Source: an uncultured Planctomycetota bacterium (GTDB lineage: Bacteria; Planctomycetota; Phycisphaerae; Sedimentisphaerales; Anaerobacaceae). From it: 64,000 bases of DNA. Where the stretch lies: contig CAVVRJ010000016.1 in the NCBI GenBank assembly GCA_963750205.1, positions 163,400 to 227,399 on the forward strand, written 5' to 3'. The notes below the pieces were generated by a model. That model did not search any database. It saw nothing but the letters and a program-made list of their open reading frames with translations, and was not told the DNA's origin. This document shows, in pieces, positions 8,498 through 50,511 of the stretch (the stretch's first letter is position 1; each line of letters begins with the position of its first letter). Made by a program: the position numbers and the translations under genes.

Positions 8498-9238
8498 GTG
8501 TCCCTGGGCATCGGGGTGGATATGGGGCTCAAGACTTTGTACGCGAGAAGCGTGGTCACCACCACGACCCTCCGCGATTTCGAGATCGAGGGGGCCGCCG
8601 AAGTGGGCGAATGCACCGGGGCGCAGTCCTTTCGCGCCACCCGTCAGCGTGACGCCCAGCCGGTCCTGCTGCACAAGTTCCGGCCGGCCGAGTCTCTGCT
8701 CGAATTGGGACCGCTGGTCACCCATGAAGAGCCGCCCGATTTCACGAAGTCGTTCGTCACTCACTTCACTGACCTGTTCGTCGTCGCCGGCAGCGCCTAC
8801 CTGGTCGAGCCGCTGCCGCCCTGCTTTGCCTTGCGCGATCTGTGGCGGTACGTGCTGCAGAAGCGGCCCGACCAGGCGTATACCGTGATCGCCCTGGTGA
8901 TGCGCCAACTGCTTGCCATTCTCCGGCGGCTCACACGGCAGAGCCGCTACCACGGCGCCTTGAGCCTCGGGAACATCGTGCTGGCGCCGACGGCCCGTTT
9001 CGGCATCCTGGCCGGGCATCTGGCCTGCCAGGACGGCCGGCTCTGGCTCCGCAAAGACCCCGCAAGCCCTGTAGAGCCTGACTCTCATGCTCTCGCCGAC
9101 CTCTTGGGCACACTGCTCGACATCGAGGCCGAGGTCGCCACTCTCCAGAACGTGCCCACGCTCCTGCCCGCGGAGGCTCGCCACCGGATTCACGAGCTGC
9201 GGCGGGCCGTCCTGCAGGCCACGGCACAGACGATATAG
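8498..9238 (+). CDS. hypothetical protein with degenerate protein-kinase-like fold (pseudokinase-like)
   Basis: Diverse amino-acid composition, unlike the Arg/Gly-rich antisense ORF 8429..9331. Weak kinase-like landmarks: FEIEGAAEVGECTGAQSF (Gly-loop-like), VLLHKF, and VMRQLLAILRRL...YHGALSLGNIVLA (catalytic-loop-like with HRD replaced). Confidence 0.4.
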   Translation: MSLGIGVDMGLKTLYARSVVTTTTLRDFEIEGAAEVGECTGAQSFRATRQRDAQPVLLHKFRPAESLLELGPLVTHEEPPDFTKSFVTHFTDLFVVAGSAYLVEPLPPCFALRDLWRYVLQKRPDQAYTVIALVMRQLLAILRRLTRQSRYHGALSLGNIVLAPTARFGILAGHLACQDGRLWLRKDPASPVEPDSHALADLLGTLLDIEAEVATLQNVPTLLPAEARHRIHELRRAVLQATAQTI

Positions 9239-12116: not shown

Positions 12117-13019
12117 TTGGGAGACGGGAAAATGGAGACGATGCAATTCGAGCCGATGTCGGTGGGCCGGATCTTCGACCGGGCCTTCGCAATCTACCGC
12201 AACAACTTCCTGCGTTTCGTCACCATCGTGGCGATCATCGAAGTGCCCCTGGCGCTGTTCTCGATTGCCACCAGCTCGTGGACGGAAACGAGAGGGACGC
12301 CTCATCAGACCTTCTTCGAGCGAATGAAAGCCCTACAAGAAGACCCTCGCGCTGCAGCCGAGCGAGATACTCGGGACGACAAGGCACCCAGCCCCCTCGG
12401 CTTCGTGGGCCGAGGCATTACGGTCCTGCTGACGATGGTGGGAACCATGCTCTGCCAGGCGGCCCTGATCAAGAGCGTCTCGGAGACGTATCTGGGCCAT
12501 GAAATCACGATCGGGCAAGCCTACCGATTTGCTCTCCCGAAGTCAGTGACGTTGGTCTTGGCCACCCTCTGCGTCGGCTTGGTGACCGGGCTTGGATTCC
12601 TGCTGCTCATCATCCCCGGCGTGATCTTCAGCTTGTGGTTCTACCTCACCGCACCGGCCATTGTCGTGGAGAATCACTCGGTTGGCAATGGGATGTCGCG
12701 TAGCAAGGCCCTGGTCGGGGGCAATCTGGGCAAGGTCTTTGGCGTCATGTTTCTGGCCGTCCTCATGAACTGGGTCATCTGGATCCTGTTCCTTCTCCCG
12801 GAAAGTTGGATTAACAGGATGCTGCCGGCCGATAGCGCGACGTTTCGGTCGTTCGTGAGCTACCTCGGCGGCACGGTCAGCACGATCCTGACGATGCCGA
12901 TCGGCGCCACCGCTTCCATCCTGCTGTACTACGATCTGCGCATTCGTAAGGAAGGCTTCGATTTGCAGATGCTCGCCCAGAGCATGACCGGGGAGCAAGG
13001 GGACTTGCGTGCGGCTTAG
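12117..13019 (+). CDS. polytopic membrane protein (GP-PDE-membrane-domain/DUF975-like)
   Basis: N-terminus FDRAFAIYRNNFLRFVTIVAIIEVPLALFSIA plus 5-6 further hydrophobic segments. Lies immediately upstream of the DUF4129 gene. Confidence 0.4.
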   Translation: MGDGKMETMQFEPMSVGRIFDRAFAIYRNNFLRFVTIVAIIEVPLALFSIATSSWTETRGTPHQTFFERMKALQEDPRAAAERDTRDDKAPSPLGFVGRGITVLLTMVGTMLCQAALIKSVSETYLGHEITIGQAYRFALPKSVTLVLATLCVGLVTGLGFLLLIIPGVIFSLWFYLTAPAIVVENHSVGNGMSRSKALVGGNLGKVFGVMFLAVLMNWVIWILFLLPESWINRMLPADSATFRSFVSYLGGTVSTILTMPIGATASILLYYDLRIRKEGFDLQMLAQSMTGEQGDLRAA

Positions 13020-24845: not shown

Positions 24846-25756
24846 ACGCGATGCGCTGGGCACTGCCGTTGACCGCCTGGGTTCTCGCGCCCCTGATGCT
24901 CGGCGATCATCAACCGGGTGAAGTCGTTCTTCGCCGGCCGCCGTGGCCCTTCCGTGTGGCAGCTCTACTACGATCTCTTCAAGCTGCTGCAAAAGGGCTC
25001 AGTCTACAGCCGCTCGACGAGCACCGTGATTCGCCTCGGCCCGTCGGTGGTGCTGGCGTGCATGGTCCTGGGCACAACGATGCTGCCCTGGGGCGAATTG
25101 CAGGCTCCTGTGACGTTCCTCGGGGACATCATTCTGTTGGCCTATCTCCTGGGCCTGGCCCGTTTCGTCACCGTGCTGTCGGCCCTCGACACGGGATCGA
25201 GCTTCGAGGGCATGGGCGCCAGCCGCGAGGTCCAATTCGCGGCCTTGGCCGAGCCGTCGTTCTTCCTGGGGATGCTGGTCCTGGTGCTCCATTTCGGGTT
25301 CTCGGGCCTGTCGAAAATGGTCTCGGAGATCTCGTTCGAGACCTGGCAGACCTCCGGCGTGCTCCTGATTCTGGTCGGCTGCTCCTGGTTCGTCCTGCTG
25401 CTGACGGAGAACTCGCGCATCCCGGTTGACGATCCCAACACGCACCTGGAGCTGACGATGATCCACGAGGTCATGGTGCTCGACTACGGCGGGCCGGACC
25501 TCGCGTTCATCCTGTACGCCGCATCGTTGAAAATGTGGATCTTCGCCGCCCTGGTCGTGAATCTCGTGGTCCCCATGCACTCCCTGACGCCCTGGCTGCA
25601 GCGCCGATCTTCCTGCTGGGCATGGTCTTCGTCATGGCCCTGGTGGGCGTCGTGGAGTCCATCTTGGCCCGGCTGCGACTGAACCAGATTCCGAAAATCC
25701 TGATCGGCTCGGCGCTGCTGAGCTTGGTCGCCTTGATCGTTCGTTTGATGGGTTAG
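24842..25756 (+). CDS. NuoH/HycD-like membrane subunit (two apparent frameshifts)
   Basis: KSFFAGRRGPSVWQLYYDLFKLLQKGSVYS matches the HycD/HyfC N-terminal signature. Frames 24842, 24918..25682 and 25535..25756 are colinear. Confidence 0.6.
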
Positions 25757-25762
25757 CCAACG

Positions 25763-26437
25763 ATGACTGTTATTTCCGTCCTGCTCATCCTCTCGTGTCT
25801 ATGGCTGCTGGCGTCCAGCCGCCTGCACGTCGCGATCCGCGTGGTGGCGATCCAGGGCGTGCTGCTGGGCGTGCTTCCGATCGTCCGGTCGATGGGGGAC
25901 ATCGGCCTGGGCGTCGGGCTTCTGGGGCTGACCACGATCATCTCCAAGAGCATCCTGCTGCCGTGGCTGATGAATACGTGTTTGCGGCTTTCGGGGCTGC
26001 GGCGGGAGATCGAGCCCTTCATCGGTTTTGGCCCTTCGCTGCTCTGCGGCACGGCCCTGCTCGGGCTGGCCGTCTGGATCACCGACCGCCTGCAACTGAC
26101 CCAGGCCCAGGCCCCGCTCGTCCTGCTGACCAGTTCCTTCTTCGCGATGCTCGTGGGCCTCTTTCTCATGGTCACCCGACGCAAGGCCATCACCCAATCC
26201 CTGGCCTACTTGGTCATGGAAAACGGCGTTTACGGCGTCGGCGTCAGCCTGAGCCTGGACTTCCCGTTCATCGTGGAGCTCGGCATCCTGCTGGACGTCT
26301 TTGTGGGCGTGTTCCTCATGGGCAACCTCCTGTTCCATCTGGATCGAGAGTTCGAGCATCTCGACACGGATAAGATGACCGAGTTGTCCGATCTCTCGAA
26401 GCCGGCCGCGGCGGCACCGCTGGAGGAGAAGGCATGA
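25763..26437 (+). CDS. HyfE-like small membrane subunit
   Basis: A 224-aa polytopic protein in an operon position equivalent to HyfE. Confidence 0.5.
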   Translation: MTVISVLLILSCLWLLASSRLHVAIRVVAIQGVLLGVLPIVRSMGDIGLGVGLLGLTTIISKSILLPWLMNTCLRLSGLRREIEPFIGFGPSLLCGTALLGLAVWITDRLQLTQAQAPLVLLTSSFFAMLVGLFLMVTRRKAITQSLAYLVMENGVYGVGVSLSLDFPFIVELGILLDVFVGVFLMGNLLFHLDREFEHLDTDKMTELSDLSKPAAAAPLEEKA

Positions 26438-27901
26438 TGCTTCTGCTGCTGACGATCCTGCTGCCGGCAGCCGCAGGGACGGCCTCGTATTTCATTCGCC
26501 CCCACCATTGGCGGCGTTTTCTTTGGGGGGCTGTCGCCGCGGCGCATTTCACGCTGGCCGTCACGGCGGCGCTGACGATCACCGCCCCGCCGCTGGACCA
26601 TTGGATCGGCATGGATGCGCTCAGCGCGATCTTTCTCGTGTTGACGAGTCTGCTTTTCCTGGGGGCCACCGTGTACGGGATCGGCTACGTGGCCCGCGAG
26701 CCCGTGGCCGGGCAGACGGACTCCGAAGACGGCAGCCTCTTCAAGAACGAGCCCGAATCCGTCTTCACCGGCGCCCTGCTCCTGCTGCTGGCCGCCATGA
26801 CGCTGGCCATCCTGAGCCGGCATCTGGCCCTGCAGTGGGTGGCGATCGAAGCCACGACACTGGCCAGCGCCCCGCTGATCTACTATCACCAGAACCGCCG
26901 GTCGCTGGAGGCCGCCTGGAAGTACCTGATGCTGTGCTCGGTCGGCATCGCCATCGCCCTGCTGGGGATCTTTTTCCTCCGCATGACGATCCAGGACGGT
27001 CCTCACGACCTGACCCTGACCGCCCTGCTGGAGCGGGCCGGCACGCTGAACCACAAGTGGCTCGGCACGGCCTTCATCTGCATGCTGGTCGGCTACGGCA
27101 CCAAGATGGGCTTGGCCCCGCTGCACACGTGGCTGCCCGACGCCCATAGCGAAGCGCCGTCGCCGGTCTCGGCGCTGCTCTCCGGGGCCCTGCTCAATTG
27201 CGCTTTTCTCGGTATCCTTCGCGTGCAACAGGTTTGTGCGGCGGCGGGCATGGCCTCCTTCGGCGGCGACCTGCTGATCCTGTTCGGCCTGCTGTCGATG
27301 GGACTGGCCGGCGGCGTTCATCCTCCGCCAAACCGACTACAAACGCATGCTGGCGTACTCCAGCGTGGAGCACATGGGCATTCTGGCGCTGGGTGTCGGC
27401 CTGGGCGGGCTGGGGCTCTTCGGCTCGTTCCTGCACGCGGTCAATCATTCCGTCGTCAAGGCGATGCTGTTCTTCACGGCGGGCAACATCCTGTCCCGCT
27501 TCCATACCAAGGACACGACGAAGATTCAGGGAGCGTGTGACGCCCTGCCGATTTCCGGGGCCTTGTGGATCGCGGGATTCCTGGCCGTGACGGGATCGCC
27601 TCCCTTCGGGACATTCATCAGCGAGTTTACGATCTTGCGGGCGACCCTCGACCAGGGCCGGTGGGTGATCGCCGTGCTTTACGTGCTGTTTCTGCTGCTG
27701 GCGTTCGCCGGGATGTCGGGGATCGTGCTGCGGATGGCGCTGGGCAAATCCGAGGTGAACCGGGTCCGCGAGCCGGTCACGGCGGTCCTGCCGCCCATCG
27801 TCTTGGCGGTGCTGGCGCTGCTGCTGGGCGTGTATCTGCCCGGCCCGCTGGCGGACCGGCTGCACGAGGCCGCCCAACTGCTGGGAGGGATGGCGAAATG
27901 A
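26434..27901 (+). CDS. NuoN/HyfF-like antiporter-type membrane subunit (one apparent frameshift near 27320)
   Basis: ORF 26434..27540 (WLPDAHSEAPSPVSALLSGALLNCAF) continues in ORF 27347..27901 (MLAYSSVEHMGILALG...HAVNHSVVKAMLFFTAG). Confidence 0.6.
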
Positions 27902-29414
27902 TCACACTGCCGCAACTCCATAACGGCCAGGCCCTGCCTTTGAAGGACATTCCGGAACTCGCCGTGCCGGACTTTCGCGGCCTGATTCTGGAGCGGGTCC
28001 GCCGGGGCAGGCGGATTTCGTCGCTCTTCGGCATGCCGGACGGCGACCAGATCATGATTCTGGCGGTGCTGGCCCATGACAGCCAGGGCATGCTGGAACT
28101 GTGCCGCACGCGGGTCCGCGACCGGTATCCGGCCCTGACCCCCGATGTCCCCCAGGCCCACTGGTTCGAGCGGGAAATCGCCGAGCAGTGGGGCATCGTG
28201 CCGGAGGGACACCCGTGGCTCAAGCCCATCCGGTTCCACACTTCCTATGTCCCGAATCGCGATGCGTGGAGCCGGGACAAGGCGATGCCGATCGAGCCGT
28301 GGCGTCACCAACTACTTCCGCGTCGAGGGCGAGGAGATTCACGAGGTCGCGGTCGGTCCCGTGCACGCCGGCATCATCGAGCCGGGCCATTTCCGCTTCC
28401 AATGCCACGGCGAGAACGTCCTGCACCTGGAGATCGAGCTCGGCTACCAGCACCGGGGCATCGAGCGGGCCCTGGTCGGCGGCCCCGGCCCGCGCACGAT
28501 CCACTACATGGAGACGCTGGCCGGCGACACCACGATCGGGCACGCCACGGCCTACGCTTCGATCCTGGAGGCCCTCGGCGATGTGACGCCTTCGCCGCGG
28601 GCCCAGGCGATTCGCGCCATCGCGCTGGAACTGGAGCGACTGGCGAACCACACCGGCGATCTGGGCGCTCTTGGCCGGCGACATCGGGTTTCTGCCCACC
28701 GCCTCCTACTGCGGCCGGTTGCGGGGCGATTTTCTCAATATCACCGCCCTGCTGTGCGGCAATCGCTTCGGCCGCAACCTCATCCGTCCCGGCGGCGTGC
28801 GGTTCGATCCGACGCCGCAAACCGCGGACGATCTCTTGACCCGCCTGCAGACGACCTTCGAGTCCGTGCAGAACGCCGTGGATTTGCTGTGGGAGACGCC
28901 GTCGGTCATGTCGCGATTCGACGGGACCGGGACCGTTTCCCGGCAGGATGCCGCCCGGCTCGGCCTCGTCGGACCGGCGGCCCGCGCCGCCGGCGTCGAG
29001 CGTGATGTCCGCAGCGACCTGCCCTGGGGCATCTACCAGTCGCACGAGTTGCCCTCGGTCACGCTGCAAACGGGCGATGTCGCCGCCCGGGCGTACGTGC
29101 GCTGGTTCGAGATGCAAAAGTCCGTCGAGTTCATCAGCGACGTGACCCGCGCCTTGCCGGCGGGACCCGTTTTGCAGGAGGTCCCCCCGCCGGCGCAAGA
29201 GCATCTGGCGGTCGCTCTGGTGGAAGGGTGGCGGGGAGAAATCTGCCACGTTGCCGTGACCAACGAGCACGGCCGGCTGCGGCATTACAAAGTTACGGAT
29301 CCGTCGTTCCACAACTGGTTCGGATTGGCGCTGGCCCTCCGCCGCCAGCAGATCTCCGATTTCCCGTTGTGCAACAAGAGCTTCAACCTGTCCTATTGTG
29401 GACATGATCTGTAG
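27898..29414 (+). CDS. group-4 [NiFe]-hydrogenase large-subunit-like / NuoCD-like catalytic subunit, apparently lacking the N-terminal Ni-ligating CxxC (two apparent frameshifts)
   Basis: Three colinear frames (27898.., 28145..29005, 28671..29414). Motifs: GPVHAGIIEPGHFRFQCHGENVLHLEIELGYQHRGIE (GPxHP...GYxHRGxEK). Where HycE/EchE have ERxCGxCxxAHSTAY this protein has ETLAGDTTIGHATAY. The C-terminus FPLCNKSFNLSYCGHDL does not match DPCxxCxxR. Confidence 0.6.
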
Positions 29415-29417
29415 AAA

Positions 29418-29495
29418 GAATGGAATATTGGAAAGCTGAAAACGTTGGGATGACAGGGCGACCTGCCCAGTATTCCATGATTCCACTATTCCCTT
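29418..29495. promoter_or_regulatory. intergenic inverted array of TGGAAT (x2) ... ATTCCA (x3) hexamers between the large-subunit-like gene and the Fd/small-subunit gene
   Basis: agaaTGGAATATTGGAAag...cagTATTCCATgATTCCActATTCCC within an AT-rich 110-nt gap. Confidence 0.45.
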
Positions 29496-29523
29496 ATTAC
29501 AATTTACCTTAGAGGTTTGCGTC

Positions 29524-30564
29524 ATGTTGAGAATACTGCGGGCCAGGCTCAAACAGGGGTACCGCACGATCCGGTTTCCGGACCAGCCGCCGGTCCTGCC
29601 GGAGCAGTACCGGGGCCGGCCCCAGTGGGACGCCGGCAAGTGCACGGGCGACTGCACGGCCTGTGTTCAGGCCTGCCCTACCGGAGCCCTGAGCAAATCG
29701 AACGGTGCCGTGACCATCGACTTGGGCCGGTGCCTGTTCTGCACGGATTGCACGGACGCCTGCCCGACCCAGGCCATCCAGTTCACCGCGGAGTATCGTC
29801 TGGCGACCCGCACCCGCGAGGCGTTGCTCGTGGACCATCGTCCTTACGCACTGGCCCAGGCCTTGGACGAGAAAGCCCGCAAGCTCTTCGGCCGCTCGCT
29901 CAAGCTGCGTCAAGTCAGTGCCGGCGGCTGCAACGCCTGCGAAGCGGACACCAACGTGCTCAACACCGTCGGATTCGATCTGGGCCGCTTCGGCATCCAG
30001 TTCGTGGCTTCGCCGCGCCATGCGGACGGTCTCCTCGTAACCGGCCCGGTCCCGAAGAACATGGAGCTGGCCCTCAAAAAGACCTACGATGCCACGCCCG
30101 CCCCCCGGCTCGTGATTGTGGTCGGCGCCTGTGCGATTTCGGGCGGCGTCTTCGCCGGCCATCCGGAAGTGAACAACGGGGCCACGTCGATCGTCCCCGT
30201 GGACCTCTTCATCCCCGGCTGCCCACCCCACCCCATCACCATCCTCGACGGCCTGCTCCGCCTGCTCGGCCGGATTGAATGGACGTCGCCAACAACCCGC
30301 GTTTGTAGCGTAGCCCAGTACATGGGCATGTCAAGAAACGCATGGAACGGACAGTCACTGCAAGACACCTGCGTTTCGAAATGTCATCTTGCTGTGGTCT
30401 GCCTCGGTGAATTTGCCGTAATAGAACTCGGCTTTCAGGCCCAGATGAGAAAGAAGGCGATCGAATACCGCCGCGATCCGGTCCATATCTACACCCGGGC
30501 GATCTCGGAGCTCCGATGCGGGTCCGTCAGAAAGCCGGGAATCTTCTCCGCGAGCAGCCGGTAG
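29524..30564 (+). CDS. fused 2x[4Fe-4S] ferredoxin (HycF-like) + NuoB/hydrogenase-small-subunit-like (HycG-like) protein
   Basis: CTGDCTACVQACP and CLFCTDCTDACP clusters, then GGCNACEAD...VGACAISGG...IPGCPP (NuoB/HycG N2-cluster cysteines). The last 90 aa or so are non-homologous and overlap a convergent gene, so the true stop is probably near 30290. Confidence 0.6.
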   Translation: MLRILRARLKQGYRTIRFPDQPPVLPEQYRGRPQWDAGKCTGDCTACVQACPTGALSKSNGAVTIDLGRCLFCTDCTDACPTQAIQFTAEYRLATRTREALLVDHRPYALAQALDEKARKLFGRSLKLRQVSAGGCNACEADTNVLNTVGFDLGRFGIQFVASPRHADGLLVTGPVPKNMELALKKTYDATPAPRLVIVVGACAISGGVFAGHPEVNNGATSIVPVDLFIPGCPPHPITILDGLLRLLGRIEWTSPTTRVCSVAQYMGMSRNAWNGQSLQDTCVSKCHLAVVCLGEFAVIELGFQAQMRKKAIEYRRDPVHIYTRAISELRCGSVRKPGIFSASSR

Positions 30565-30868
30565 TAGATGCAGTCCTCGTGGTTGATCAGCACGGCCCGC
30601 TGACCGAGGGAAAGGCCCGGTGGATCAGCTCGAGCCGGTCCTTCATGAACTTGAATTCCTTGGGCAACCTCTCGGGATAGGCCAGCGCCCCCGCCCCGCC
30701 CCCTACGACCGTAGGAATGTACTGCCCCTTGGCCAAGCCCAGCTCGTTCTCGATGAACGGGACGAACGCCGTCTGAAGCCGGGGGTCGCCACAGTAGACC
30801 ACGGCCGCCTCCGGGTGGACATGCGGCAGCGCCTCGTACACGTTCGTGTTCCCTCCCGACTCGGACAT
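30489..30868 (-). CDS. hypothetical protein (about 126 aa, one apparent frameshift near 30610)
   Basis: MSESGGNTNVYEALPHVHPEAAVVYCGDPRLQTAFVPFIENELGLAKGQYIPTVVGGGAGAL... continues in another frame as GQRAVLINHEDCIYYRLLAEKIPGFLTDPHRSSEIARV. No family recognised. Confidence 0.3.
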
Positions 30869-31048
30869 AGCCCGGCCCTTTCAGGAGCCCGTCTGTCTCA
30901 TCGTCGTTATCTGGGTGGCCGCCAAGCCGGAAGGTCTTGGCGATGGCCTCTGCTTCGTGGCGACGGCGTCGGCCCTTGCGTCGCGAGGCCATCTTGGCCT
31001 CGCCTTATCCGCCTGTGGCATGTTTACCGCCCGAACAGCAAGGGCCAG

Positions 31049-31084
31049 GGTCCCCAAACGCAATCAGTTCGCGTTTGGGAACCC
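31049..31084. repeat. palindromic REP-like element, family CCCAAACGCG-N6-8-CGCGTTTGGG (copy 1, intergenic between convergent genes)
   Basis: ggtccccaaacgcaatcagttcgcgtttgggaaccc forms a perfect 9-bp stem. Confidence 0.7.
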
Positions 31085-31172
31085 ACGATGCCTTCGCCAC
31101 GAAGGAGCCGTCAGGCTTTCTTGCCGTCAAAAGGAGAGGCGGATTCTTCTTCAACAGGCGGCCGGGGCGACT

Positions 31173-32828
31173 TCAGTTCCACCGATTTGACTGCCGCCGG
31201 CTTGGTCTCGGCGATTTCGTGGTCAGGAGTTGCTCCAGCTCTTCGAGGCTGATCCCCAGCTTGCCCAGTAGCGGCTTGAGGTCGATGCCCTGGACCTTCA
31301 GGGCCGACAGGAACTTGAAGACGGTGTTGGGCACGATCGAGCTGAACTGGTCGAGTCCCCGGCCGTTGCCGCCCATGTCGATGATTCGCACCTCGTCGAT
31401 CTGGCCCAGCGGCGCCGCCACGCTCGAGAAGACCGAAGTCGCGACCTTGCTCATCGCATCGCCGCCGCGATCGAGCAGCAAGGGCAGCCGGTCGAGGATC
31501 AGGATCATCTTCGCGTCGGCCGACATCTTGGCCAGCGCCTCGGCGAGTTGCTTGGTGCCCTCGGCCTCCGCCTTGAGGACCATGCCCTTCTTGGCGGCCT
31601 CGCCTTCGGCCTGGGCCACCAGGGCCTGCTTGGTCTTGGCCGCTTCGCCTTCCGCCTGGGCGAGCATCACGGCCTTGGTCTTCGAGGCCTCGCCTTCGCC
31701 TTCGTAGACGCGGGCTTGTCTCTCGCCTTCCGCCCGGCGGATCGCGGCTTCCTTGGCCGCCTCGGCGTTGGTCACCGCCACCATCTTCGCGGCCTCCGCG
31801 TCGATCACTTGCTTGGACCGGTTGGCCTGGGCCAGCTTGACCACCGTGGCATCGAGCTCCTGCTCCTTGCGGGCGGCCTCTTTGCACTGGACCTCGATCT
31901 GGGCCTCCTTCTCCGCGGCGTCGCGCTCGGCCTGGCGAACCTTGAGCGTCTTTTCCTGCTCGGCCAGGGCAATGCCAAACGCCTGCTCGGCTTTGGCTCT
32001 TTCCGTGTCGGCGATAGCTTTGAACTGAGCCCTTTTCACGTCCCGGTCCCGCTCGGCCTGGGCCACTTGCACCGCGTTGCTGGCGACCTGGATATCCGCC
32101 TCGCGCGTGGCGTCGCTGACCTTCTTCTTGGTCTCCGCCTCGGCTTGGGCCGTCTTGATGTTGGCGTCCCGGATGGCCTCGGCGACCGACTGCTTGCCGA
32201 GGGCGTCAATGTAGTGAAACTCGTCCGTCACTTCCTGGATCACCAGCGTGATGATCTGGATGCCGAGCCGCCGGAGCTCTTCCGTGGATTCCTCGACCAC
32301 CTTCTTGTTGAAGGCATCCCGGTCCCGCAGAATCTCACTGATGTTCAGCTTGCCGATGATCGACCGCAAATGGCCCTGGAGGATGTTCCGGACGATCCGC
32401 GCCAGCTCGTCCTCGGTCTTGCCGAGGAAGGCGGCGGCCGCATTGTGGAGCGATTCCTGCGTCGTCTCGATCTTGTACGTCGCCACGCCCCGGGCGCTGA
32501 TCTTCACGTTGTCCTTGTTCGGGATGTCGTGCTCGTCGATCTCGACCTGGGAGACGCCCGTGGACATCGGCTGAAAATGCTCGACGATCGGCCACAGCAG
32601 CGCGCCGCCCCCGGCGACGACCCGGAAGCCCCGGTGCTGCATCTTCCCCTCGGCGTCCAGGTACTTGTACTTGCGGCCATAGAAGATGCCCACCTGGTTG
32701 GGCGGGATCTTCTTGTAGCGGCTGGCCATCGCCCAGACGACCACGATAAAGGCCACCGCGATCAGAAGGATCATCCCCGCGATCAACACGGAGCCACTCG
32801 TTTCGGCTATCAGCGGCAATGCGTTCAT
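31173..32828 (-). CDS. flotillin / SPFH (band-7) domain protein (YqiK/FloT-like)
   Basis: N-terminal TM segment, SPFH domain (QVGIFYGRKYK...) and a long Ala/Glu/Lys-rich coiled-coil. Confidence 0.8.
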   Translation of the reverse strand: MNALPLIAETSGSVLIAGMILLIAVAFIVVVWAMASRYKKIPPNQVGIFYGRKYKYLDAEGKMQHRGFRVVAGGGALLWPIVEHFQPMSTGVSQVEIDEHDIPNKDNVKISARGVATYKIETTQESLHNAAAAFLGKTEDELARIVRNILQGHLRSIIGKLNISEILRDRDAFNKKVVEESTEELRRLGIQIITLVIQEVTDEFHYIDALGKQSVAEAIRDANIKTAQAEAETKKKVSDATREADIQVASNAVQVAQAERDRDVKRAQFKAIADTERAKAEQAFGIALAEQEKTLKVRQAERDAAEKEAQIEVQCKEAARKEQELDATVVKLAQANRSKQVIDAEAAKMVAVTNAEAAKEAAIRRAEGERQARVYEGEGEASKTKAVMLAQAEGEAAKTKQALVAQAEGEAAKKGMVLKAEAEGTKQLAEALAKMSADAKMILILDRLPLLLDRGGDAMSKVATSVFSSVAAPLGQIDEVRIIDMGGNGRGLDQFSSIVPNTVFKFLSALKVQGIDLKPLLGKLGISLEELEQLLTTKSPRPSRRQSNRWN

Positions 32829-32984
32829 GCTTGTCTCTCCTATGCAGATTCTCGTTTATCGTCCCAAGGTGCGCGGCTCGTCTCATTGGTTCGGCGTTCC
32901 GCGTTTACGCGGGTCGGACCGGTCTTTCCCGCCTGAAGGCGGAACTCCGAACGAGCGTCGCAACCGCCCTCGCTCCACGATTAT

Positions 32985-33587
32985 TCAGCCTTGGCCGGCA
33001 TCGACCGTGAGGACCGAGCCCGACACATCGACGATCCGCACGGCATGCCCTTTGCACGCCGTGTTCGGGCCTTGCAGGCGCGCCGGGTACGTGCGGTATT
33101 CGCCCCCGACACTGACGCCGATCTCGCCGACGCTGTCCCGATTGATCGGCACGGTCACGGTGCCCGTGCAGCCAAGGAGAGCGTCGGCGGCAATGACGGA
33201 GTTGGCCTGTTGCTCGGTGAACAACAGGATAATACCGTACATGAGGGTGGCCAGCACGATGCCGGCCGCCACGCCGATGAGGGAAGCGAGGGGGTAGCCG
33301 GTGCCGTAGAACTGCGCGATGGCTCCCGCCGCTCCGAATCCCATGATGAAGGTGAAAATCACCTTCGTCGAGAAAATGCCGACGATCCCATGCGTGTCCG
33401 GACCGGCCTCATGGCTGAAGTCGTGGTCGAAATCGCCGCCGAGATCGTGGTCATGGCCGAACAGGAACGCCCCGGCTATCACGATGAACGCCGCCAGTGC
33501 TATCGCCACAAAGATAGTCATAGCCGTCTCCTTTCGTAGCACGGGTACGAGATCCCCAGCGCGACCTATCGCGTTTGGGAACTCCAT
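32985..33587 (-). CDS. NfeD-like (YqiJ-like) membrane protein
   Basis: Likely start MTIFVAIALAAFIVIAG near 33521. TM helices plus a C-terminal OB-fold (GTVTVPINRDSVGEIGVSVGGEYRTYPA...AVRIVDVSGSVLTVD). Lies immediately upstream of the flotillin gene. Confidence 0.65.
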   Translation of the reverse strand: MEFPNAIGRAGDLVPVLRKETAMTIFVAIALAAFIVIAGAFLFGHDHDLGGDFDHDFSHEAGPDTHGIVGIFSTKVIFTFIMGFGAAGAIAQFYGTGYPLASLIGVAAGIVLATLMYGIILLFTEQQANSVIAADALLGCTGTVTVPINRDSVGEIGVSVGGEYRTYPARLQGPNTACKGHAVRIVDVSGSVLTVDAGQG

Positions 33588-33814
33588 CTTGCCCGTGGTT
33601 GAGAATCCATGAGCGAGACGCCCATGCTACTTAGATAGACGCGGACACCGGTCCCGTACTTCATTCGAATTGTCGAGAAATATACCCATTTTCCCGAAGC
33701 CTGTCTACCGCCGTCCGGGTCCTTTTTTGTCTCGACTTGTCGCTCCCGACAGGGCACAATTACCATATGATCCGGGAAATCCGGGTAGCTTGGGCAATGA
33801 ACAGAATCGGAGTG

Positions 33815-33910
33815 CTGGAATAATGGAATACTGGAACGATGGAATGCTGGGATTCCTGGCTCTTCACCCATTATTCCAAGATTCCAATGTTCCATTATTC
33901 CAATTCCTTA
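33815..33910. promoter_or_regulatory. divergent-promoter region containing 5x TGGAAT (8-10-nt period) followed by 5x ATTCCA, a large imperfect palindrome of the same hexamer as at 29418
   Basis: ctGGAATaaTGGAATacTGGAAcgaTGGAATgcTGGGAttcctgg...ccATTATTCCAagATTCCAatgTTCCATTATTCCAATTCC. Lies between the NfeD-like (-) and ydcF-like (+) genes. Confidence 0.45.
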
Positions 33911-33932
33911 TCCCCTGCGGAGAGCTTGAGTT

Positions 33933-34719
33933 ATGGCTGTAGTGAAATCGTTGGCCACGCCGATGGTCTGGGTCCTGGTGCTGCTGGTGCTGGGCTTGGT
34001 CTTGACGCGCAAGAGTCGCCGCCGGGATCCGCAACCTTGTGGCTCGCGGAGATTAGGGCGACTTCTACTGCTGATTGGCGTCGTGCTGCTGGCCACCCTG
34101 AGCTCCAAACCGATCGCCAACGGTCTGACGTACCCGCTGGAATCTCAATACCGACCACCCCCGGCGGAGGCCCTGGACGGGCTCGACGTCGTCGTGGTCC
34201 TGGGGGGCGGCCTATATCCCTCGGGGGGATTGCGGCAGGAGGCGGAGTTGGGCCGGCACACGTATCCGCGCTTTTATCATGGCGTGCACATTTTCCGAGA
34301 TCATCACGCCGGTCTGCTGGCTTTCTGCGGCGGTCCGCCTCGCCCAGGGACCGAGAGCGAGGCCCAAATCATGAAGACCATGGCCGTGCGCCTGGGCATT
34401 CCCGAGGACAAAATCCTGGCGGAGACGACGTCGCGGACCACGTTTGAGAACGCGGCCAACCTGGCCCGCTTGCTGCCGGCCGGACAGGGCCGACGCCTTG
34501 GTCTGGTCACCTCCGCCACGCACATGTGGCGGTCCTACCGGACCCTCGCCAGCCAATTCCCGCACGACACGATCGTGCCCATCCCGGTCCATTACACCTA
34601 CGATCCGAATCGGCTGGCGCCCGGACACCTTCGTGCTTTCCGCCGGCAATCTCGAACAAAGCACGCTGGCCCTCCATGAGTGGGTCGGGCTGCTGTGGTA
34701 CGATTTGCGCCATCGATAG
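33933..34719 (+). CDS. YdcF/DUF218 (SanA-like) family protein (one apparent frameshift near 34640)
   Basis: TM N-terminus, DVVVVLGGG motif and LGLVTSATHMWRS. Confidence 0.55.
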
Positions 34720-34746
34720 AGTTTTCCGGGAGAATGGAAGAATGTC

Positions 34747-39506: not shown

Positions 39507-39531
39507 GGCGTTTCTGCGCAAGTGTCAGATT

Positions 39532-39601
39532 GGTAGGGTGTGCATCGCACACCAATAAAAGGTCCTGGTAACGAGAGGTGGTGTGCGGTGCACACCCTAC
39601 C
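39532..39601 (+). terminator. long perfect hairpin (22-bp stem GGTAGGGTGTGCATCGCACACC / GGTGTGCGGTGCACACCCTACC), candidate intrinsic terminator and repeat-family member
   Basis: Lies 26 nt after the stop of the 37866..39506 gene. It shares stem termini GTAGGGTG...CACCCTAC with the element at 50444. Confidence 0.5.
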
Positions 39602-39883
39602 ACCTGAAACTCGCTTCTATGCCCATGCAGACACACTGCTTCTCGGGTGGATGACCAAACAGCGGCAGCAAGACCGGTCCTACGCGTTTGTCGCTTTCCG
39701 GGTACCAACGGAGAGTTGGCGGGACGTAACCACAAGGACAGACGGGGTGTGGCGGCGCGAGGAACCGGGTGAGGCCCCCACGCACGCCATGTCACAACTG
39801 CCCGTCCCTGGCATCCCCTGATTCACTAATTGTTAAGTTGAGGGCGGGCCCTCTGAGTCCCCACCCGTGCCGGGGCCGCCACT

Positions 39884-49568: not shown

Positions 49569-50447
49569 ATGTCGATGAAGATTCTACCGCAGCAGTCTCG
49601 TTCTTATGGCTCTTTCGTCGGTCCAGGCGCAGGAGCAGAAGACGCCGGCCGCCGATACGGGCGATGCCTCGTACAAGCTCGTCTGGGCGGATGAGTTCAA
49701 CTACAACGGTGTGCCGGACCCCAATAAATGGACCTACGAGCGCGGTTTCGTGCGTAACCGAGAGCTGCAATGGTATCAGCCGGAGAACGCCCGGTGCGAG
49801 AACGGCATGCTCATCATCGAGGCCCGGCGCGAGCGCAAGCCGAATCCCGGACGCCCAGGCCGACGCTGGGAAGCGCCGCGGGAGCCGGGAATCCGCCGAG
49901 TACACCTCCGCGAGCGTGACCACGAAGGGTCTGCACAGTTGGCAGTACGGCCGGTTCGAGATGCGGGCGCGGATCGACACGCGGCCCGGTCTGTGGCCCG
50001 CCTTCTGGACGGTGGGCGTCGCAGGCCGCTGGCCCCAGGGCGGCGAGATCGACATCATGGAATACTACAGGGGCATCCTCTTGGCCAACGTCGCCTGGGG
50101 CTCCAAGCAGCCCGGGACGGCCAAATGGCATCGACAGCAAGAAGCCCCTCACGGAGTTCGGCGATCCTGATTGGTCCAAGAAGTTCCACGTCTGGCGGAT
50201 GGACTGGGACGAAAAGAGCATCAAGCTCTACGTGGACAACCTGCTGCTCAATTCCACCGACCTCAAGGACACCGTCAACGAGGACGAAGAGGCCAAGAAC
50301 CCCTTCCACCAGCCCCACTACATCATCCTGAATCTCGCCATCGGCGGCACCTCCGGCGGCGATCCCTCCGCCACCGAGTTCCCCGCCCGGTTCGAAGTGG
50401 ATTACGTGCGCGATCTATCAGAGGCAGACGCAATAGAGACGGCGTAG
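49569..50447 (+). pseudogene. GH16 beta-glucanase (laminarinase-like), >=3 apparent frameshifts
   Basis: Signal peptide MSMKILP... Fragments 49606..50331 (KLVWADEFNYNG...), 49484..50170 (WPAFWTVGVAGRWPQGGEIDIMEY, catalytic ExDxxE) and 50199..50447 (KFHVWRMDWDEKSIKLYVDN). Confidence 0.65.
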
Positions 50448-50511
50448 GGTGGGGCTTGCCCCACCGACACGGCGAATGCGCAGGAATTCGGTGGGGCAAG
50501 CCCCACCCTAC
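50444..50511 (+). terminator. long hairpin (GTAGGGTGGGGCTTGCCCCACC ... GGTGGGGCAAGCCCCACCCTAC), candidate terminator and repeat-family member
   Basis: It begins at the TAG stop of the GH16 gene. The stem is 22 nt and the loop 24 nt. Confidence 0.5.

Follow-up and report, generated by a model that had tools for sequence, protein, structure and literature searches.

The closest described counterparts of the element discussed here include three groups of repeats. Cyanobacterial STRRs include hairpins of 7-nt units located between hupS and hupL of uptake hydrogenase operons, which were suggested to stabilize the transcript or to couple translation (PMC2670836). Direct repeats of the heptamer TAACTGA are present in Beggiatoaceae, Cyanobacteria, and Bacteroidetes, just upstream of start codons (MacGregor 2015, PMC4679880), and were noted to give stops in all reading frames (PMC4679880). 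The REP/BIME palindromes carry a GTAG or CGTC tag, are RAYT-associated, and have been proposed to play a structural role in mRNA (PMC3733652). Here, two arrays of octamers with a TGGAAT core are compared with these systems. They are located in a stretch of 64,000 nt, called the window below, of which the closest protein relatives are found in Planctomycetes/Phycisphaerae MAGs. A literature search for the repeat sequence returned unrelated primers only, and general searches on octamer or octanucleotide repeats gave no description of the element.

Architecture and gene context of the two arrays

A first-pass annotation of the window had reported the hexamer TGGAAT as direct repeats followed by inverted repeats at two intergenic sites, and period-8 arrays are indeed present at both places, namely at 29413-29501 (site 1, 89 nt) and at 33808-33907 (site 2, 100 nt). 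Both share the plan (TGGAATRN)n, TGGG-loop-CCCA, (NYATTCCA)n. The phasing, previously put at about 8-10 nt, is exactly 8 nt according to both the repeat search and Tandem Repeats Finder, which returned period 8 at 29467-29498, 33816-33845, and 33868-33904 with 3.8-4.6 copies per arm. The earlier count of 5 + 5 copies at site 2 is about right, as each arm has four exact and one to two degenerate units. The 5' arm of site 1 consists of two exact and about two to three degenerate 8-nt units and its 3' arm of two exact and about two degenerate ones. The end sequences are ...AGAA-TGGAAT and ATTCC-TTAT. The parts of the two elements and the nearby promoter-like block are given below; probable indel errors in the window are a caveat for single-base detail of the array units.

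29413-29452, no strand assigned: site 1, 5' arm, AGAAAGAA TGGAATAT TGGAAAGC TGAAAACG TTGGGATG
29453-29465, no strand assigned: site 1, loop or spacer, ACAGGGCGACCTG
29466-29501, no strand assigned: site 1, 3' arm, CCCA GTATTCCA TGATTCCA CTATTCCC TTATTACA
33732-33760, + strand: putative sigma-70-type promoter of the DUF218 gene, outside the repeat, TCGACT-17 nt-CACAAT (alignment A1)
33808-33855, no strand assigned: site 2, 5' arm, CGGAGTGC TGGAATAA TGGAATAC TGGAACGA TGGAATGC TGGGATTC
33856-33866, no strand assigned: site 2, loop, CTGGCTCTTCA
33867-33907, no strand assigned: site 2, 3' arm, CCCA TTATTCCA AGATTCCA ATGTTCCA TTATTCCA ATTCC

The arrays are real, and chance is excluded. Eight period-8 pairs of TGGAA/TTCCA were counted in the window against 0.097 expected, and the maximum in 300 dinucleotide shuffles was one. 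In a relaxed scan of the window (three units, at most three mismatches) sites 1 and 2 were the only matches, and none was obtained in the shuffles. The bare hexamer occurs 32 times against 23 expected; as this excess is mild, the significance rests on the clustering.

Site 1 is located in a 109-nt gap between a NuoC/NuoD-like fusion gene and a gene for a NuoB plus ferredoxin-like (NuoB/4Fe-4S-like) protein, as assigned by Pfam and by a syntenic relative. The 5' arm begins inside or directly after the TAG (29412-29414) of the former, and the array ends 22 nt before the ATG (29524) of the latter. Both genes are members of an Ehr/Mbx-like membrane complex operon, and the site 1 array would necessarily be part of a polycistronic transcript. 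Site 2 is flanked by NfeD on the - strand (start near 33521) and by a gene of DUF218/YdcF type on the + strand (ATG 33933), and its array ends 25 nt before the start codon of the DUF218 gene. The gene context given earlier for both sites agrees with Pfam and with the comparison with a syntenic relative. Downstream of both arrays an SD-like sequence is left free, AGAGG at 29511-29515 and GGAG at 33919-33922. Both hexamers of the putative DUF218 promoter are kept in five relatives, with a variable spacer (alignment A1), and this conserved promoter-like block would place the site 2 array in the 5' UTR, at about +40 to +140.

In the Ehr-like operon and among the adjacent genes (window 24900-34720), almost no gene is free of splitting by frameshifts when compared to the intact proteins of a related genome (L121), with about one indel per 0.5-1 kb; examples are found near 25601-25607, 27312-27317, 28299-28304, 28671, 30243, 30522-30602, 31206-31209, and 34616-34618. 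These frameshifts look like indel errors of long-read assembly and not like pseudogenization. Exact-protein look-ups of two window proteins gave no match, probably because of the many frameshifts. Other repeats are present in the same region: The flotillin/Band_7 gene contains a tandem repeat of 45 nt at 31589-31698 (2.4 copies, 75 % match), and a further palindromic family (GTTCGGAGTTCCGCCTTCAGGCGGGAAAGACCGGTC-like) is found between the flotillin and NfeD genes at 32889-32952, with a related copy 3' of the NuoB-like gene in L121 (about 8868-8900).

Turnover of the arrays in related genomes

Syntenic loci were taken from Planctomycetota relatives, which at 59-91 % on the amino acid level are too diverged for exact insertion junctions. 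Two genomes, that of the window and L121 (88 % aa), have a TGGAAT array in the site 1 slot, which runs from the nuoCD-like stop to the nuoB-like start. The left junction, TAG-ARAGAA-TGGAAT, is the same in both; the number of units and the loop differ, a counterpart of the window's loop being missing from the L121 copy. The slot is occupied by GTAG-tagged REP hairpins (CACGGGCATCTTGCCCGTG, GTAGCATGGGCGTCCCGCCCATG) in L122, L123, L126 (91 % aa), and L128/L129, that is, in five loci from four distinct relatives. In L127 (366-500) it contains a hairpin of which the arms are built from 7-nt tandem units, TTCGAAA (Tandem Repeats Finder: period 7, four copies), and hairpins armed with tandem repeats of other cores and periods thus exist in the clade. 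The slot was empty in none of the eight relatives. Since three unrelated hairpin families occupy one and the same slot, any function at site 1 would reside in the structure and not in the TGGAAT sequence, and the interchange of TGGAAT array, REP, and 7-nt-unit hairpin supports this for any local role.

The window has GTAG REPs of its own, of the family that fills the site 1 slot in L122, L123, L126, and L128. They are present as inverted pairs of palindromes at 39531-39602 (TGGTAGGGTGTGCATCGCACACCA...) and 50444-50511 (GTAGGGTGGGGCTTGCCCCACCGA..., 24/24 complementary). A single REP-like hairpin, CATGAGCGAGACGCCCATGCTAC, is located as a remnant at 33583-33630, upstream of nfeD.

In alignment A1 of the site 2 region, the conserved TCGACT-17-CACAAT block is followed by a conserved leader. 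In two relatives (L167 and L168), no insert separates ...CTGCCGC from the SD sequence GAGGA. At this same point, the window carries the array (about 33805-33912), L122 a GC-rich insert of 57 nt (about 12470-12530), and L123 an insert of roughly 170 nt (about 12560-12740). With three unrelated inserts in three genomes and two genomes empty, the point between the DUF218 leader and the SD sequence is an insertion hot spot. A lineage with a rearranged upstream region (L166/L169) has a TGGAAT array 23 nt before the ATG:

L166/L169, 23 nt 5' of the ATG: array of TGGAATGG TGGATGGCCCACCCA ATATTCCA TCATTCCA ATATTCCA ATGTTCCA

The patterns at both slots are those expected of intergenic repeats that come and go at permissive spots and not of a selected operator.

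Occurrence across phyla, folding, and signals

When one genome per species was scanned for runs of four TGGAA-N3 units, at least 120 stretches (L001-L120) were obtained, a sample that is biased by its TGGAA seed. Several features beyond the seed recurred among the matches listed: Units have a T in position 6 and a purine in position 7, and the arms are closed by TGGG...CCCA. Another such feature is an inverted second arm that follows 15-130 nt downstream and that gave at least 46 two-arm elements. Carriers among the matches listed are Desulfobacterales and other Desulfobacterota, Planctomycetota (L051, L062), Verrucomicrobiota, Lentisphaerota/Victivallales, and Bacteroidota. Several copies per genome are present in several MAGs, as they are in the window. 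The element of L051, another Planctomycetota MAG, has a near-perfect 31-bp helix (-61.4 kcal/mol, z -9.3). Among the matches listed, conservation is strong in the 6-nt core, and unit positions 7-8 are variable. In 48 arrays the TGGAA arm is located 5' of the TTCCA arm, against three with the opposite order (matches listed; the exceptions are in L023 and L076). Because a TGGAA-then-TTCCA arrangement reads alike on both strands, this polarity is a genuine property of the element, and its near-invariance exceeds what a plain hairpin requirement explains.

By a crude ORF heuristic, applied to loci many of which are MAG contigs, only two of the 46 elements among the matches listed are inside ORFs, the rest being intergenic; with the same heuristic, the gaps of these elements are co-directional, convergent, and divergent in 26, 9, and 3 cases, close to the 274, 88, and 57 background gaps of the same loci. 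Many of the listed elements touch the stop codon of the ORF in front of them or overlap with it. The neighbours identified in a few loci are unrelated, both by N-terminal sequences (MurG-like, MTAP-like) and by Pfam (ABC-3 permease, oxidoreductase, ECF sigma factor, OEP). With gaps resembling the background and these neighbours unrelated, there is no positional bias to promoters among the listed elements, which is essentially the pattern that the first-pass annotation had itself named as speaking against its regulon. An autonomous element between distant pairs of arrays was considered and rejected, as L016 and L078 hold ordinary genes there (lectin-like protein, OEP, ABC-3 permease, pyridine-nucleotide-disulphide oxidoreductase, and ECF sigma factor). 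No transposase, and thus no RAYT, the IS200/IS605-type Y1 transposase of REP systems, was found among the 39 window ORFs using Pfam, nor between the array pairs in L016 and L078.

Other cores also form period-8 arrays in some of the scanned genomes, in which octamer and heptamer SSRs of many motifs occur. In a number of Desulfobacterales MAGs (L033, L056, L061, L091, L113, L104, L114, L022, L052, L077, L084, and L097) the arrays are located within a larger conserved repeat with the flank GAACTTAGTTCGCTTCGCTCACAAT and a GCGAAGC motif, the known sequence of an ultra-stable DNA mini-hairpin. About 60-70 nt downstream, a conserved box, TTGTAGAAATTCCGAGACGTnTAATTA, directly precedes the start codons of genes that are unrelated to one another (MurG-like, MTAP-like), an arrangement that may represent a mobile promoter or leader module. 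TGGAAT octamer arrays were also found in 36 viral contigs, several of which belong to giant-virus MAGs; nearly all of these arrays are perfect SSRs running in one direction. The IMG/VR contigs L132, L139, L141, L145, L153, and L164, some of them giant-virus MAGs, carry long perfect runs of this one-directional kind, either (TGGAATCA)n or (TGGAA)n-mixed. The viral-contig arrays are a different, SSR-like phenomenon with a common TGGAAT core; an association with phages was rejected, as the viral contigs were few and mostly held one-directional SSRs.

Folded as RNA, site 2 has a predicted energy of -44.7 kcal/mol (z -6.1) and site 1 of -25.0 kcal/mol (z -2.9), and the opposite strands of both sites fold equally stably. 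The predicted stems consist of 6-bp TGGAAU/AUUCCA helices with small internal loops between them, so that the hairpins are imperfect. When the order of the units within the arms was shuffled, the fold was undiminished (mean dE +0.16 kcal/mol over 27 elements), and 14 of 30 such shuffles of the window elements folded as well as the real order. Since shuffled and real unit orders fold alike, positions 7-8 do not covary between the arms. For the 25 elements with co-directional flanking genes, sense and antisense folds differed by 0.08 kcal/mol on average (11 versus 13, Wilcoxon p = 0.79). Neither the unit-order shuffles nor the sense-antisense comparison thus gave a signature of selection on an RNA helix, and RNA-level selection is not supported, the sense strand having no advantage and register-specific complementarity being absent. 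The lack of arm covariation and the equal folding of both strands make the constraint look DNA-level or motif-level, and the conservation of core motif and polarity points either to such a constraint or to descent of the copies from one spreading element.

Several known types of signal were considered for the arrays. Intrinsic terminators were rejected because the stems are A+T-rich, neither is followed by a T-run, and the terminator scan lists neither array. The promoter/terminator scan reported no extra promoter at the arrays. No sigma-54 -24/-12 element adjoins either array, and the window-wide number of matches to it is at chance level; a sigma-54 enhancer was rejected for lack of such an adjacent site. 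A search of the window against Rfam at a permissive threshold returned just mir-791 (E = 8.9), a chance match, and no Rfam match was obtained at the gathering threshold for the arrays in ten other loci. A module providing stops in six frames is not supported in the window, since several frames of the two copies are without a stop. In the family consensus, unit positions 6-8 are most often TGA or TAA, which at a period of 8 would lead to stops in all frames as a tendency of that consensus. Binding of CsrA, S1, or CSP to the GGA/UCC units was considered by analogy with the TAACTGA repeats (PMC4679880); these motifs are mostly sequestered in the stem.

Origin and possible role of the element

The window element resembles STRRs in being built of short tandem units, in being intergenic and capable of forming a hairpin, and in its position, which is intercistronic in an operon of hydrogenase type or close to a gene's 3' end. 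STRRs, in contrast, have 7-nt units of other sequences and have been described for filamentous cyanobacteria only, whereas the window element has an 8-nt unit, TGGAATRN, two inverted arms of fixed polarity, and a Planctomycetota-like host. Broadly defined (noncoding, head-to-tail units of 5-11 nt), short-unit tandem repeats include the window element, which falls outside the STRRs in the strict sense. With the TAACTGA repeats it shares the use of one short unit in tandem arrays in distant phyla, the mostly intergenic location with unrelated downstream genes, the position a few to tens of nucleotides 5' of starts or overlapping upstream stops, and stop triplets in the family consensus unit. TAACTGA arrays are, however, 7-nt direct repeats with one indirect case, whereas the TGGAAT element is an inverted hairpin pair of which the window copies do not provide a stop in every frame. 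In unit length, core, host range, and two-arm inverted design, the element thus differs from both STRR and TAACTGA arrays.

Like REP/BIME sequences, the arrays are small, dispersed intergenic palindromes presumably transcribed in operons, and GTAG REPs fill the site 1 slot in sister genomes. Unlike REPs, they have no GTAG or CGTC tag, are about 90-100 nt long instead of 20-40 nt, have periodic arms, and are strand-symmetric; tag and short-palindrome length place them outside the REP family. A RAYT was not seen among the 39 window ORFs. With MITEs, they have in common that they are short and noncoding, with inverted arms and an insertion-like pattern of presence and absence. They differ from these in having no target-site duplication (no direct repeat flanks either window copy) and no conserved unique termini; no related autonomous IS was identified in the window or the L016/L078 intervals.

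Taken together, both sites probably represent a dispersed palindromic repeat that is strand-symmetric, has arms of tandem octamers, and is similar to STRRs and REPs; it would be transcribed inside mRNAs, and any effect would most likely be structural. This reading builds on the observed architecture, non-randomness, turnover among relatives, and cross-phylum occurrence. The element, with 5' (TGGAAT-R-N)n and 3' (N-Y-ATTCCA)n arms closed by TGGG...CCCA, would belong to the class of short-tandem-repeat hairpins or REP-like intergenic palindromes. Copies may arise by insertion, or by slippage combined with inverted duplication, and are quickly gained, lost, resized, or replaced at permissive slots that either follow directly on a stop codon or immediately precede a Shine-Dalgarno sequence. 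They would be cotranscribed with the flanking genes, intercistronically at site 1 and presumably in the 5' leader at site 2, and the transcript could fold into the long imperfect hairpin of 6-bp TGGAAU/AUUCCA helices. By analogy with the systems described above, an effect, if there is any, would most likely be structural: an exonuclease barrier, a processing site, or uncoupling or attenuation of the downstream cistron. Against a purely structural explanation, the occurrence of the TGGAAT core across phyla with fixed polarity points to a sequence-specific constraint. In addition, the never-empty site 1 slot in eight relatives and the acquisition of TGGAAT arrays in the DUF218 leaders of two lineages could reflect local selection.

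It is improbable that the arrays are operators or enhancers, at which a multimeric DNA-binding regulator (RHH, response-regulator, or Fur-like polymerizing) would bind the TGGAAT units on double-stranded DNA and control the adjacent genes as a regulon. The interpretation as a multimeric regulator array, enhancer, or regulon, put forward earlier, is not supported by the comparison of orthologous sites, at which the arrays are not conserved: In close relatives with an otherwise conserved promoter and leader, they are absent or replaced by unrelated hairpins. One array is intra-operonic, 6 nt after a stop codon, and the other is located 3' of the conserved promoter block; an enhancer would need a sigma-54 promoter, which neither has. 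Moreover, the neighbours identified are functionally unrelated, the listed elements show no promoter bias, and the gene for the operon's HTH_17-EIIA regulator is also present in array-less relatives. What does speak for an operator is the strong conservation of the 6-nt core next to variable positions 7-8, the fixed two-arm polarity (48 versus 3 among the matches listed), and the absence of arm covariation and of a strand preference in folding, which fits recognition of a DNA motif better than an RNA helix. Tandem operators of 7-8 bp, moreover, exist for RHH proteins, as in the metboxes of MetJ and the omega heptads, and provide a precedent. Less likely still is a contingency locus, that is, simple-sequence arrays formed by in-place replication slippage, in which changes in unit number would phase-vary the downstream genes. 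With only three to five units in each arm, heterogeneous at positions 7-8, the arrays are ill suited to slippage at high frequency, the adjacent genes are of housekeeping type and not surface or antigenic, and slippage alone leaves the inverted arm, the fixed polarity, and the cross-phylum core unexplained. Such a locus would agree with the different unit numbers of the window and L121 at the same site and with the octamer and heptamer SSRs of many motifs in some of the scanned genomes. SSR arrays as a class are known (Mrazek 2007, in the summary given in PMC4679880), and SSRs in 5' UTRs can control expression (PMC12721329).

The small mobile palindromic element proposed in the first-pass annotation stands in part. 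Presence, absence, and replacement at the slots fit it; for the window copies, neither a target-site duplication nor defined termini nor a transposase could be found, and mobility is what we infer from the pattern. In its full form, a nonautonomous MITE- or REP-like element of which the TGGAAT units are the sites of a widely distributed transposase or HUH-type enzyme and which spreads by transposition and cross-phylum transfer, this explanation is unlikely, though less so than an operator. Unit, TGGG/CCCA closure, and arm polarity recur in at least four phyla, the hot spots are also used by REPs, several genomes including that of the window hold multiple copies, and the strand symmetry is a trait of TIR-type elements. 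The Desulfobacterales copies even have conserved termini (GAACTTAGTTCGCTTCGCTCACAAT) and the GCGAAGC motif, as in a defined repeat family. The window copies, on the other hand, share no termini outside the arrays, no transposase or RAYT is present in the window or between the L016 and L078 array pairs, viral-contig matches are few and mostly one-directional SSRs, and the difference in unit number between orthologous copies means that slippage at least contributes. A related proposal can be made tentatively, as one of the less probable readings: The TGGAAT-octamer hairpins would form a previously unrecognized cross-phylum palindromic family, REP/RAYT-like with a periodic code, of which core, closure, and polarity are maintained by a sequence-specific protein. 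This protein could be a transposase or HUH-like mobilizing enzyme or a conserved DNA- or single-strand-binding factor. In this ranking, the regulator array retains a small probability because of the motif conservation, and a mobile element with its enzyme a larger one.

In conclusion, a dispersed palindromic repeat remains the preferred reading of the two arrays, and a false lead has been removed: They mark no regulon, are interchangeable intergenic hairpin inserts, and should be annotated as repeats. The finding in the window is itself ordinary, and the cross-phylum pattern of one core with one polarity is moderately interesting. Prior short-unit tandem-repeat hairpins were mainly the 7-nt STRRs of cyanobacteria and the TAACTGA arrays of a few lineages. 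Here, one 8-nt unit of fixed polarity occurs in several unrelated phyla and shares intergenic slots with GTAG REPs as a competitor. Should the element be maintained by a dedicated protein, this would be a new repeat/enzyme system; if not, the arrays would provide a clean case for studying the turnover of intercistronic hairpin "slot fillers" and the need of operons for them.
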